The notes below the pieces were generated by a model that was not told the origin of the DNA, ran no database searches, and saw nothing but the letters and a program-made list of their open reading frames with translations. This document shows positions 9,226-24,362 of a stretch of DNA of 64,000 nt, in pieces. Made by a program: the position numbers and the translations under genes. Source of the stretch: a virus (Duplodnaviria > Heunggongvirae > Uroviricota > Caudoviricetes); the IMG/VR virus record IMGVR_UViG_3300042923_000186, positions 1 through 64,000 of that record; one strand, 5' to 3'. How positions within the stretch are numbered: the stretch's first letter is position 1; every line of letters begins with the position of its first letter.

Positions 9226-9384
9226 ATGCCAATCTTTGAAGAAACAATCACTATTTCCAAGACGGAATACGACCGGCTGAACGACCGTGACCTGAAGCTT
9301 TCGTATCTCGAAGCCGGGGGCGTAGACAATTGGGAATGGTACAGCGAATCGCTCCGTGAATACTGGGCAGAGGAGGACGAATGA
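9226..9384 (+). CDS. small hypothetical protein (52 aa)
   Basis: Not in the ORF track. Strong RBS aactaaggagggaac before ATG. Stop overlaps the ThyX start (ATGA). Confidence 0.4.
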   Translation: MPIFEETITISKTEYDRLNDRDLKLSYLEAGGVDNWEWYSESLREYWAEEDE

Positions 9385-12834: not shown

Positions 12835-14067
12835 TTGGCAAAACTGACAGATACATTCAAGAATACCTACTTTCGCGTACATACCGAGTCTGAATCGCTT
12901 CGGGTTCAGCGGCTCCTGTTTTCGCTGGGGTACATGTGGTTCTTCAAGGTAGCAGGGGAGGAACGGACGCCTATTTTGTCTCTACGAGACGGAACGATTT
13001 ACGTAGATGAGAACTGCCGTATGAGGTGTACTGACGGCTTCGTTATCTGCGGCAACAACAGCCAAGGTTCGATTGTCAAGCTGCTAGAGGTAGCGGACCA
13101 GTGGAAGAAAGAGAAGACCAAGAAGCGTCGTGAGTCGCGTAGGCGTGCCAAGCTGCGTAAGCAAGGCTGGATTCTTAACACGGGAACGGAGCCGGGAGTG
13201 CACGGTAAGGTTGACATCCTGTTCTTTGACGGCACAACCTATACCGCCACTGATTATCACTGGGCGTGGAACATTAAAAGCCGCCGAGGCAAGGAAATTC
13301 AGGCATACCGCCCTGTCAAGGAAGAGGGCAAGGTAATCTCGCTGGAGGCCATGACGAAAGCTGTTGCTAACGACCTCGGCAAAGAGGTGATGCGCGTTCC
13401 TGAAGCTAATGGATGGATTGAACATCGTCCGGGTATCGATCCAGCGCCATCCGATGCATACGAAGTGAAGCTGCGAGACGGAGACATCAGGCTAGCAGAC
13501 CAAATACTCACGTTCGGCTCCGATCACAACAGCATTTCGATCCAATATGATCGTCAAGTTGTCGCCTACAGACGGGCAGTTGACCACAACGTTAAGGTGG
13601 AGCCTGCTGGTGGCTTCGTAGAGGTGCCGGAGCCACAGCCAGACACTAACCCTAAGAAGCAGTACGGGTTGGCGTCGATTCCGCTGCACATGTGGAGCCC
13701 TTTGGCGTCCGCTTACGGTGCTCTGGGCCTGTACAACGGTTCGCTGAAGTATGGTTCAGCCAACTTCGCAAATACGCCTGTGGAGGCATCTATCTACATC
13801 GCGGCTGCACAGCGTCACTTGGCTGCATGGGCATCGGGCGAAGAGTTTGATCCGGCAGACGGCGTTCCGAATCTGGGCGGTGTGCTAGCTAACGTAGCTA
13901 TCCTGTTGGAAGCACGAGCGGCAGGTACGTTGATTGATGACCGCCTTAGCATGGCTGGCTACCTGAAGGAGCGTGACACCCTGAAGGACATCGTGAAGAA
14001 GCTGCAAGAGGTTCACGCCGGTAAGAATCCGCGTCACTATACAATCGCAGATAAGAAGGAGGGCTAA
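12835..14067 (+). CDS. hypothetical protein (410 aa)
   Basis: RBS aaaggagaaactaa; no confident motif. Confidence 0.5.
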   Translation: MAKLTDTFKNTYFRVHTESESLRVQRLLFSLGYMWFFKVAGEERTPILSLRDGTIYVDENCRMRCTDGFVICGNNSQGSIVKLLEVADQWKKEKTKKRRESRRRAKLRKQGWILNTGTEPGVHGKVDILFFDGTTYTATDYHWAWNIKSRRGKEIQAYRPVKEEGKVISLEAMTKAVANDLGKEVMRVPEANGWIEHRPGIDPAPSDAYEVKLRDGDIRLADQILTFGSDHNSISIQYDRQVVAYRRAVDHNVKVEPAGGFVEVPEPQPDTNPKKQYGLASIPLHMWSPLASAYGALGLYNGSLKYGSANFANTPVEASIYIAAAQRHLAAWASGEEFDPADGVPNLGGVLANVAILLEARAAGTLIDDRLSMAGYLKERDTLKDIVKKLQEVHAGKNPRHYTIADKKEG

Positions 14068-19067: not shown

Positions 19068-19123
19068 TGTAACAATAGTTACGCTATCTATTTAGGTGGC
19101 GTTAGCTAACTAAAGGAGGTATA

Positions 19124-19279
19124 ATGGACTACTATGATCGGGGCTACGAAGCCTACCAACAAGGCTTGCCAACGTCGGCCTGCCCGTTTGAACCGGGCGG
19201 AGAAGCCTGCCAAGACTGGCTAATGGGCTGGTGGCATGCCGAAATTGACGACAAAGAAAAAGATTCAAAAGAAGCTTGA
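19124..19279 (+). CDS. ribosome modulation factor (Rmf)-like small protein
   Basis: Not in the ORF track. Strong RBS taaaggaggtata. DRGYEAYQQGLPTSACPFEPGGEACQDWLMGWWHA parallels E. coli Rmf RGYQAGIAGRSKEMCPY...WLGGWREA. Confidence 0.5.
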   Translation: MDYYDRGYEAYQQGLPTSACPFEPGGEACQDWLMGWWHAEIDDKEKDSKEA

Positions 19280-19304
19280 CAGGTAGTTAGGTAGTAGGTA
19301 AGAT
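19276..19304 (+). promoter_or_regulatory. sigma70-like promoter P7 (TTGACA-17-TAAGAT)
   Basis: Spacer ggtagttaggtagtagg; overlaps the 3' end of the Rmf-like gene. Confidence 0.5.
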
Positions 19305-20736: not shown

Positions 20737-21531
20737 ATGAAAAAACTGTTCGCAATTCTGGCCGTAGCAATGTCCCTGTCCGCATGCCACATCGTTGATA
20801 CGGGCAAGGTTGGCCTTCGTGTCAACTTCGACAAAACCGTGGAGCAATCGGAACGCCTTCCGGGCAGCTTCAATCAGGTGGTGGTGGGCAGCGTGATCGA
20901 CATCCCTGTCAAGGAAATCTCGGTGGATGTCACCAACCTGACGCCGCTGGCCTCAGACAACTCCACGATGTCCGACTTCGATGTCACCGCCGTCTACAGC
21001 ATCAATCCGGCCAGCGTTAGCGACATGTACGTCAACAAGAACCGCAGCTTCCACAGCCTGAACGCTGAAGGAGAAGTTCTGCTGATGCATTCGTACCTGC
21101 AAACGACGATTCGTAACGCCGTCTACAAGGTGGCCCGTAAGTACGAAGCCATGAAGATGAATGATGAGCGTCAGAACATCGAAGCTGAGATTCTGGCTCA
21201 GGTGAAGTCCACGCTAGAGGCTGAGAAGCTGGGTTCGTCGGTTCTGGTGACGCAGATTCAGGTAAAGAGCATTGCTCCGTCCGCTGCGATTACGAAGGCT
21301 GCTAACGATCTGGTCAAGGCCAAGTCCGAACTGCTGGCTAAGGAAGTCGAAGTAAAAACTGCCGAACGTGAAGCTCAGCGTATGGCCTCGCTGGCTAACA
21401 ACGCCGGTCAAAGCATCGCCTACATGAATGCCCAAGCAGGCATGATGATCGCTGAAGGCATTCGTGACGGCAAGGTGCACGCCATTGTCGTACCGTCTGA
21501 TTTCCGTGGCATGGTGAATGTAGGTAAGTAA
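20737..21531 (+). CDS. lipoprotein, possibly SPFH/band-7-like
   Basis: Lipobox LSAC at residues 14-17; RBS aaggagaaattact. Confidence 0.45.
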   Translation: MKKLFAILAVAMSLSACHIVDTGKVGLRVNFDKTVEQSERLPGSFNQVVVGSVIDIPVKEISVDVTNLTPLASDNSTMSDFDVTAVYSINPASVSDMYVNKNRSFHSLNAEGEVLLMHSYLQTTIRNAVYKVARKYEAMKMNDERQNIEAEILAQVKSTLEAEKLGSSVLVTQIQVKSIAPSAAITKAANDLVKAKSELLAKEVEVKTAEREAQRMASLANNAGQSIAYMNAQAGMMIAEGIRDGKVHAIVVPSDFRGMVNVGK

Positions 21532-22147: not shown

Positions 22148-22220
22148 CTCCCGGTAGCTCAAAGGATAGAGCACTGATCTTCTAAGTCAGGTGTTCCTTG
22201 TTCGAATCAAGGTCGGGAGG
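22148..22220 (+). tRNA. tRNA-Arg (anticodon TCT)
   Basis: Manually folded cloverleaf. 7-bp acceptor ctcccgg/tcgggag. D-arm GCTC-AAAGGATA-GAGC. Anticodon stem ctgat/gtcag with loop cTTCTaa. T-arm ccttg-TTCGAAT-caagg. Discriminator G then encoded CCA (22221-22223). Confidence 0.75.
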
Positions 22221-22243
22221 CCACTAAATTAAAGGAGGACTGA

Positions 22244-23759: not shown

Positions 23760-24362
23760 ATGAAAACAAAAGAAAGTTTGGACTGGCACGAGATGTTTTA
23801 CTACGATGCTGAGTCTCCTAGTGGCCTAAGGAGGAAGACGGACTGGAGGACTGGAAAGGACTACCAGATACTCAGGGCTAAGGCTGGAAGCCCAGTAGGT
23901 AGCATAGCTGGCATCGGTTACTACGTTACATACGTGGATGGCCGACTGTTCTACTGTCACAGGATTGTCATGGAGTTGCACGGTGAAGACATTAAGGACA
24001 TGTCTGTAGACCACGTAGATGGCAACTCGCTCAACAACAAGTATGAGAACCTGAGAGCGGTTCGGCACAACGTAAATCACAGGAACAGAAAGAAGCCTAC
24101 TACAAACAAATCAGGGGTGGTAGGCGTGTCACTGAATACCGAGATGATAGGCGGGAAGGAGAAGCGGAGATGGGTTGCAGGGTGGCGGGATATGGAAGGG
24201 AAGTCCCGTTACAAGTATTTTTCTGTGACAAAGCTAGGGGAAGAAGGGGCGTTCAAGGCGGCTTGTGAGCACAGGTCGGACGTTATTAACAAGCTAAACG
24301 CTGAAGGTGCGGGCTACACACAAAGACATGGAGGTGCAGATGAGGGCAGTATGGGACATTGA
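23760..24362 (+). CDS. HNH homing endonuclease with C-terminal AP2 domain
   Basis: VDHVDGNSLNNKYENLR HNH core. AP2-like SGVVGVS...WVAGWRD. Confidence 0.65.
   Translation: MKTKESLDWHEMFYYDAESPSGLRRKTDWRTGKDYQILRAKAGSPVGSIAGIGYYVTYVDGRLFYCHRIVMELHGEDIKDMSVDHVDGNSLNNKYENLRAVRHNVNHRNRKKPTTNKSGVVGVSLNTEMIGGKEKRRWVAGWRDMEGKSRYKYFSVTKLGEEGAFKAACEHRSDVINKLNAEGAGYTQRHGGADEGSMGH

Follow-up and report, generated by a model that had tools for sequence, protein, structure and literature searches.

What does a phage gain from a protein that looks like the bacterial ribosome modulation factor Rmf? The question is raised by a 64,000-nucleotide (nt) stretch of viral DNA (Caudoviricetes), positions 1 to 64,000 of the IMG/VR record IMGVR_UViG_3300042923_000186, hereafter called the window. 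A short open reading frame (ORF) of 51 codons that follows its DNA polymerase gene, polA, had been compared by eye with Escherichia coli Rmf in a preliminary description of the window, which proposed that the phage might use it to act on host ribosomes. We conclude that the ORF protein is very probably a member of the Rmf/CrpP fold family but not a working Rmf. On balance we favor the wider reading in which this acidic member of the fold is no hibernation factor and acts as a small protein-binding accessory.

The product of the ORF, as read from the window, is MDYYDRGYEAYQQGLPTSACPFEPGGEACQDWLMGWWHAEIDDKEKDSKEA, a protein of 51 amino acids (aa). It had been described as unannotated, which is true of the length-filtered track, but the gene is called in both public assemblies: on a 42-kb Logan contig and on an 88.9-kb Joint Genome Institute (JGI) contig, where it already carries the automatic name "ribosome modulation factor." Its start lies 56 nt 3′ of the polA stop codon, which bears out the placement just downstream of the polymerase gene. 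It is preceded by the Shine-Dalgarno sequence AAGGAGGT, a perfect 8-nt complement of the anti-Shine-Dalgarno; the ribosome-binding site is thus as strong as had been stated, but "near-ideal" is slightly generous given a rather short spacer of 3 nt. The closest relative, P0002, is a 50-aa protein, 73% identical, encoded on a 1.9-kb fragment of a related phage (L011). Over 48 aligned codons the two genes show 17.5 synonymous differences for 27 sites and 18.5 nonsynonymous differences for 117 sites, that is, a ratio of nonsynonymous to synonymous substitution rates (dN/dS) of 0.12, and because of this ratio we consider the ORF a real, selectively constrained coding gene. The region is uniform in base composition. 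A chance ORF in the spacer downstream of polA would fit the very short length and the failure of a PHROGs scan to assign the protein to any family. This reading is effectively refuted already by the dN/dS value, the strong Shine-Dalgarno sequence, the significant profile matches, the confident fold prediction, and the 40 relatives described below, and we retain almost no belief in it.

At the level of the fold, the resemblance to Rmf reflects true homology. Searches with profile hidden Markov models (HMMs) gave a significant match of the Pfam RMF family (PF04957) to residues 4–39 (E = 1.1e-5, 25.8 bits), and the NCBIfam model NF041886, "Rmf/CrpP family," matched residues 5–37 on profile positions 4–36 of 39 (30.1 bits, E = 2.7e-7). 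The latter is a subfamily-level model with a curated cutoff of 28 bits, so that the ORF protein counts as a member of the Rmf/CrpP family. It falls short of both Rmf-specific cutoffs, with 25.8 bits against the Pfam gathering score of 27.9 and 26.3 bits against the cutoff of 40 of the Rmf equivalog NF011162, and also of the phage equivalog NF041887 (16.7 bits against 40, E = 0.0036). Of the segments of 30 aa or longer in the six frames of the window (1151 in all), the ORF was the only one that the family profile matched; the Rmf match thus does not come from screening a large number of ORFs, and the same comparison detected no paralogs in the window. A phmmer search of the PDB sequences with the ORF protein returned Rmf chains only.

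The alignment drawn by eye with E. coli Rmf, including the Cys-Pro pair and the WLxGW motif, was reproduced by HMMER. The tail had been written WxxGW(R/H)A; its WLxGW part stands, but the actual sequence is WLMGWWHA, with W37 at the R/H position and the histidine one residue later. AlphaFold2 modeling from 17 family sequences (mean predicted local distance difference test score 93.4) places a helix at residues 3–12, a loop at 13–26 containing the Cys20-Pro21 motif, and a second helix at 27–50, ending in an acidic C-terminal tail. The protein is thus predicted to be a two-helix hairpin held by a conserved Gly, Cys-Pro, and Trp core. When this model was compared with the PDB by Foldseek, the top three matches were all Rmf (9iot_y, 2jrm, and 6h4n_v; template modeling [TM] scores of 0.65–0.72) and were followed by a sharp drop. 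The preliminary description had held that its proposal would fail if no significant HMM or structural match to Rmf were found; both kinds of match were found. Seven core residues are kept, G7, G14, C20, P21, W32, G35, and W36, and correspond to G16, G23, C29, P30, W40, G43, and W44 of Rmf, which are structural in that protein (PMC8126665). In the family alignment they fill the columns that vary little or not at all. A metal site formed by C20, C29, and H38 was considered and rejected, since C20 alone of these is conserved, the closest homolog having an alanine in place of C29.

The residues by which Rmf touches the ribosome have fared otherwise. Thirteen residues are invariant in 50 Rmf sequences; 11 of them were mutated in E. 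coli Rmf, and almost no 100S particles formed after a change of any one (Yoshida et al. 2021, PMC8126665). Ribosome binding requires R3, K5, and R11, the first two of which touch helix 28 of the 16S ribosomal RNA (rRNA), and dimerization requires R45, which contacts C1536 of the anti-Shine-Dalgarno; with any of the substitutions R3A, K5A, R11A, and R45A, or lacking its five N-terminal residues, the E. coli protein forms hardly any 100S particles or none (PMC8126665). In the HMMER alignment the ORF protein begins at approximately residue 10 of Rmf and has no counterpart of R3 and K5, while R11 aligns with D2 and R45 with W37. All four functional basic residues are therefore absent or replaced. 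Of the 12 basic residues of Rmf, a single one has a basic counterpart (R15, aligned with R6), in a column that is not conserved in the family. The net charge of the ORF protein is -8 and its isoelectric point (pI) 4.13, against +7 and 10.86 for E. coli Rmf. Because it is so acidic and every known rRNA contact is gone, the protein is, as judged from its sequence, very unlikely to occupy the Rmf site on the 3′ region of the 16S rRNA.

The ORF protein is thus not an orthologue of the ribosome modulation factor. Compared with Rmf (E. coli structures 4V8G, 6H4N, and 9IOT; Vibrio parahaemolyticus 2JRM; families PF04957 and NF011162), it shares the seven core residues and is of similar size, but it does not share the basic N-terminus, the arginine at position 45, the sign of the charge, or a score above either cutoff. 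It is also phage-borne and apparently expressed with replication genes, whereas Rmf is the product of a chromosomal, gammaproteobacterial stationary-phase gene. The two earlier suggestions, that a phage Rmf could force ribosome dimerization or hibernation and that it could mimic Rmf to manipulate translation, are hard to maintain. Both are opposed by two failed Rmf-specific cutoffs, by the loss of R3, K5, R11, and R45 (the last replaced by W37), by the retention of one basic residue of 12, and by a net charge of -8 instead of +7.

These departures are not peculiar to the window. An exhaustive HMMER scan of 1.84 billion representative proteins yielded 40 relatives at E ≤ 1e-3, which form three groups: single-domain proteins of 47–84 aa, multidomain proteins in which the domain occurs two to four times in tandem, and some with C-terminal hydrophobic segments. 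Almost all of the single-domain relatives are acidic (25/27), with a median net charge of -7. P0002 and gp029 of the Serratia phage Muldoon exceed the Pfam RMF cutoff; the phage relatives that match this model do so only from profile position 11–13 onward, which makes the loss of the basic N-terminus a family trait. The column equivalent to R45 is mostly occupied by W, F, L, or H, with an arginine once in 20 sequences, and the invariant columns of the family are exactly those of the structural core. Tandem Rmf/CrpP-fold domains (two to four, in proteins of 100–450 aa) were observed in P0003, P0007, P0008, P0016, and P0028, and hydrophobic, membrane-anchor-like C-termini in P0004, P0005, P0012, P0026, P0031, and P0038. 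Genuine Rmf has neither architecture.

It took exhaustive HMMER searching to bring the family into view. In a word-indexed search of a 5.8-billion-protein database, the single sequence retrieved only itself and a profile 17 matches. By tblastn against cultured phages, no match was obtained for the ORF at E ≤ 0.01 or for the relative P0029 at E ≤ 0.001, and only at E ≤ 10 did 21 weak matches emerge, all labeled "hypothetical." An IMG/VR scan with the single protein gave no confirmed relative. By structure, dozens of phage proteins in BFVD share the fold of the ORF protein (TM scores of 0.7–0.9, root mean square deviation 0.4–1.8 Å), most of them named "uncharacterized" and a few automatically named Rmf. 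They include proteins from phages of Caulobacter, Gluconobacter, Rhizobium, Burkholderia, and Delftia, that is, of alpha- and betaproteobacterial hosts, and homologs of rmf and batR have been reported in gammaproteobacteria only (PMC13411936). The family is therefore common in phages, including those of hosts without Rmf, and occurs in plasmids as well, nearly all of its members bearing the label "hypothetical"; within it the ORF protein belongs to an acidic, N-terminally truncated branch common to both. Phage-borne Rmf-fold proteins are already known in databases, with curated models, and this ORF is one more member.

Relatives recur in the early and replication regions of mobile elements (Table 1). 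At two loci, family members were also observed a few kilobases from known anti-defense genes; one of these loci is a plasmid with AcrF1, the other a phage contig with a Gad2-domain gene.

The surroundings of the ORF in the window are of the same kind. The polymerase is ~50–53% identical in amino acid sequence to those of Pseudomonas Nankokuvirus and its relatives and of Aeromonas Plateaulakevirus. A megablast search of 50,697 phage records with a 2.5-kb region gave no match; the phage is known from metagenomes only, and its placement is that given by the ~50% amino acid identity of its polymerase. In Nankokuvirus G1 and Aeromonas phage PAc, no homologous small ORF follows polA, and the small ORFs found there are unrelated, which indicates that synteny is not conserved at that depth. 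Promoter scanning revealed neither a sigma-70-like promoter nor an intrinsic terminator between polA and the ORF (19068–19123), so that the ORF is probably the last gene of a replication-gene transcription unit; a promoter within the conserved box upstream of the ORF had been considered, and the scan found none. The single site detected in a 900-nt region (0.2 expected) overlaps the end of the gene, the TGA stop codon lying inside the -35 hexamer. The sequence TTGACA-17-TAAGAT is unique in the window and is kept in L011, where hexamers and spacer differ by one base. This promoter presumably drives the next genes, from 19371.

Comparison with L011 suggests, at the level of sequence, that the ORF sits in a cassette-exchange slot bounded by conserved regulatory DNA. 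The 3′ end of polA, the 56-nt intergenic box, the ribosome-binding site, and the ATGG that follows are shared, but in L011 this ribosome-binding site precedes an extra gene of 93 aa, without any Pfam match, after which the Rmf-like ORF begins with overlapping stop and start codons. The intergenic boxes on either side are 90–95% identical (the downstream one at 43 of 48 positions), whereas flanking coding DNA is 77–79% identical and sequence further downstream 48%; it is this contrast, together with the extra gene of L011, that points to a slot. The promoter at the end of the ORF presumably marks its downstream boundary. We also observed that in L011 ~215 nt (449–664) interrupt polA after ...QQLIAYH and match the Rfam group I intron model RF00028 over its full length, with E = 6.5e-9 and a score of 42.2 bits that falls short of the gathering score of 50. 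At the matching codon (..AYH/DEAQLEV..), between 18764 and 18765, the window polA is continuous.

Table 1. Positions of the ORF, of its neighbors and of other features of the window, and locations of relatives of the ORF protein in other genomes
Feature	Location	Strand	Remarks
51-aa acidic Rmf/CrpP-fold protein gene	19124..19279	+	ATG at 19124, TGA stop 19277-19279
Shine-Dalgarno AAGGAGGT	19113..19120	+	Read directly from the sequence; spacer ATA (3 nt) to ATG
Family-A DNA polymerase gene (polA), 830 aa	16575..19067	+	Pfam DNA_pol_A PF00476; same-strand upstream cistron
Intergenic box, polA stop to ORF start	19068..19123	+	53/56 (95%) identical to L011; putative upstream slot boundary
Sigma-70-like promoter TTGACA-17 nt-TAAGAT	19276..19304	+	10/12 matches; promoter scan
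Extra 93-aa gene	L011 1085-1366		Inserted exactly between the shared ribosome-binding site/ATGG (window 19113-19126) and the Rmf-like ORF
52-aa product	~9226-9384 (L003 103-261)	+	Precomputed Pfam match Phage_T7_Gp5_9 (PF25708)
410-aa product	~12835-14067 (L003 3712-4944)	+	Precomputed Pfam match dGTP_diPhyd_N (PF18909)
264-aa Band_7/SPFH-domain protein	20737-21531	+	Lipoprotein-like N-terminus MKKLFAILAVAMSLSAC...; same early region
tRNA-Arg (anticodon TCT)	22148-22223	+	ARAGORN and Rfam; sole RNA gene detected in the window
200-aa HNH_3 and AP2 homing-endonuclease-like gene	~23760-24362	+	Same early region
P0029	Early operon of a lambdoid temperate phage		Repressor region to replication genes
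P0041	Near primase and ParA
P0019	Small-gene array		Includes an HNH gene and Gad2
P0032	Near ParB-like, PolA, and SNF2 genes
Muldoon gp029	T4-like phage		DnaB-like helicase on one side, primase on the other
62-aa "Rmf/CrpP family protein"	47-55-kb P. aeruginosa plasmids		Small-gene array with AcrF1, toxin-antitoxin pairs, and MvaT
L012 (P. aeruginosa plasmid pPA1045-2)	6965-7153 and 11067-11303		Family member near AcrF1
L008 (phage contig)	6001-6180 and 8632-9408		Family member near Gad2-domain gene

Two of the other products listed in Table 1 call for a comment. T7 Gp5.9 is a DNA mimic that inhibits RecBCD, and the 52-aa product matching its family would, if the match holds, be a second small acidic-type early protein of this phage. 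The dGTP_diPhyd_N gene, which is flanked by primase-helicase and UvrD-like helicase genes, may from its domain content serve nucleotide-pool manipulation or base modification.

How far do characterized relatives help in assigning a function? The ORF protein passes the cutoff of the Rmf/CrpP family NF041886, which includes CrpP of the Pseudomonas plasmid pUM505 and of integrative and conjugative elements (ICEs), and it is 40.8% identical over 96% of its length (E = 1e-3) to WP_033946155.1 of P. aeruginosa plasmids. These best plasmid relatives are annotated "Rmf/CrpP family protein" and not CrpP. CrpP variants are carried on pUM505-type plasmids or Tn6786-type ICEs, and the element here is a phage. 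The phage and plasmid proteins are both small, acidic, and single-domain, and both are encoded on mobile elements in small-gene arrays; the ORF differs from the plasmid and ICE members in lying in a virulent-type, myophage-like genome and in having no N-terminal extension. Zubyk and Wright reportedly disputed the activity of CrpP in 2021. Because the kinase activity claimed for CrpP is thus disputed, there is no established family mechanism for the ORF protein to share. The "Rmf/CrpP fold protein" family NF041887 and the phage proteins of BFVD, such as A0A385EDL1 of Caulobacter phage CcrSC and proteins of Serratia phages PS2 and Muldoon (gp029) and of Burkholderia phage BcepSaruman, have in common with it the fold, the size range, and the early or replication location, and all are uncharacterized. 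Its identity to the members from cultured phages is only 21–39%, and its score (16.7 against 40) does not make it an NF041887 equivalog.

A further case is PA3049/BatR of P. aeruginosa, an Rmf homolog that reportedly has no role in ribosome hibernation and binds the Ser/Thr kinase SrkA (PMC13411936). BatR provides a precedent, a functional one only, for the Rmf fold serving protein binding. It differs from the ORF protein in being chromosomal, in being much closer to Rmf, and in having a third helix, formed by 15 additional residues at its C-terminus; moreover, nothing points to the ORF protein binding a kinase, as BatR does.

The scenario that we favor would run as follows. The ORF protein would be made together with the replication proteins, as the product of the last cistron after polA. 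It would keep the Rmf scaffold but present, in place of the basic RNA-binding surface, an acidic one with the exposed aromatic residue W37. It would then bind a protein, either a host factor or a component of a defense system, binding of the anti-Shine-Dalgarno on 16S rRNA and dimerization of ribosomes being unlikely. Protein binding appears to be the most likely activity because the acidic surface and the exposed W37 replace the basic RNA-binding surface, and such binding is typical of small accessory proteins made early by phages. On the more specific proposal of a protein-binding accessory factor we are evenly divided; by analogy, its role may lie in host takeover or anti-defense. Several points weigh against this scenario. 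Its positive part is argued from the charge, the exposed W37, the genomic context, and analogy, and the association with AcrF1 and Gad2 concerns just two loci and carries no statistics. Our literature searches found no function assigned to any acidic phage member, nor any paper in which phage function or anti-defense is connected with CrpP or with Rmf-fold proteins. An acidic protein could, besides, still dock on basic ribosomal proteins and so have a non-canonical role at the ribosome. Finally, part of the sequence of residues 1–12 that we take to be that of E. coli Rmf is our assumption, R3, K5, E10, R11, and A12 being those confirmed by the published numbering.

Among the other readings, one is a specific version of the accessory-protein proposal, namely, that the protein mimics nucleic acid and, like T7 Gp5.9 or Ocr, inhibits a host enzyme that binds DNA or RNA, for example a nuclease of the restriction or RecBCD type. 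We consider it unlikely as such, although it would agree with a net charge of -8 in 51 residues and an acidic tail, with the acidity of 25 of the 27 single-domain relatives, with the early/replication location of the gene, with the T7 Gp5.9-like protein encoded upstream in the same phage, and with the proximity of relatives to AcrF1 and Gad2. A non-canonical role in translation or hibernation, in which the protein, as an acidic decoy, would sequester host Rmf or some other basic protein of hibernation or of the ribosome and thereby remodel ribosomes or, in starved cells, keep them working for the phage, is in our view improbable. Descent from a ribosome-binding fold would suit it, as would a charge opposite to that of Rmf and fit for a basic partner; phages, moreover, often meet non-growing cells in which ribosomes hibernate. 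But Rmf-fold proteins are not known to pair with each other, and some phages with relatives infect alpha- or betaproteobacteria, in which there is no Rmf for a decoy to capture.

A functional phage Rmf, which would bind the 30S subunit at the anti-Shine-Dalgarno, drive 70S dimerization and hibernation, and thereby shut off host translation, has in its favor true homology with the same fold, the automatic JGI name, and the scores of P0002 (the closest homolog) and Muldoon gp029 above the Pfam RMF cutoff. We nevertheless hold it to be very improbable, given the failure at both Rmf-specific cutoffs and the absence or replacement of R3, K5, and R11 (binding) and of R45 (dimerization via C1536), when loss of the five N-terminal residues alone abolishes Rmf activity (PMC8126665). 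A net charge of -8, with one of 12 basic residues retained, is equally hard to reconcile with an rRNA binder, as is the frequency of the family in phages of hosts without Rmf; and even PA3049, a much closer homolog, is reportedly not engaged in hibernation. Least credible of all, and close to excluded, is a fluoroquinolone-modifying enzyme of the CrpP type. Membership of an NCBIfam family named for Rmf and CrpP and the 40.8% identity to "Rmf/CrpP family" proteins of Pseudomonas plasmids would suggest it, but a predicted two-helix hairpin of 51 residues has no nucleotide-binding fold, and drug resistance is of no evident use to a lytic-type phage.

The case therefore calls for caution in annotation: both automatic pipelines, that of JGI among them, and a careful reading by eye arrived at "ribosome modulation factor" for a protein in which the scaffold alone remains. 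The family to which it belongs spans phages of many hosts and Pseudomonas plasmids, and its genes lie in early or replication small-gene arrays, the usual place of host-takeover and anti-defense genes. It is rather unlikely, but would be of consequence, that acidic, truncated Rmf-fold proteins constitute a class of their own that targets translation or hibernation, for example as anti-hibernation factors, or else a new anti-defense family. In the anti-hibernation variant, a basic hibernation or ribosomal protein would be neutralized, which would allow phage translation in starved cells. If either version were true, the ORF would offer a handle on a widespread, uncharacterized phage family. Identification of the target would give a function, in one step, to dozens to hundreds of phage genes now labeled "hypothetical" and shed light on what CrpP-like proteins really do; a ribosomal target, if found, would be the more striking result.
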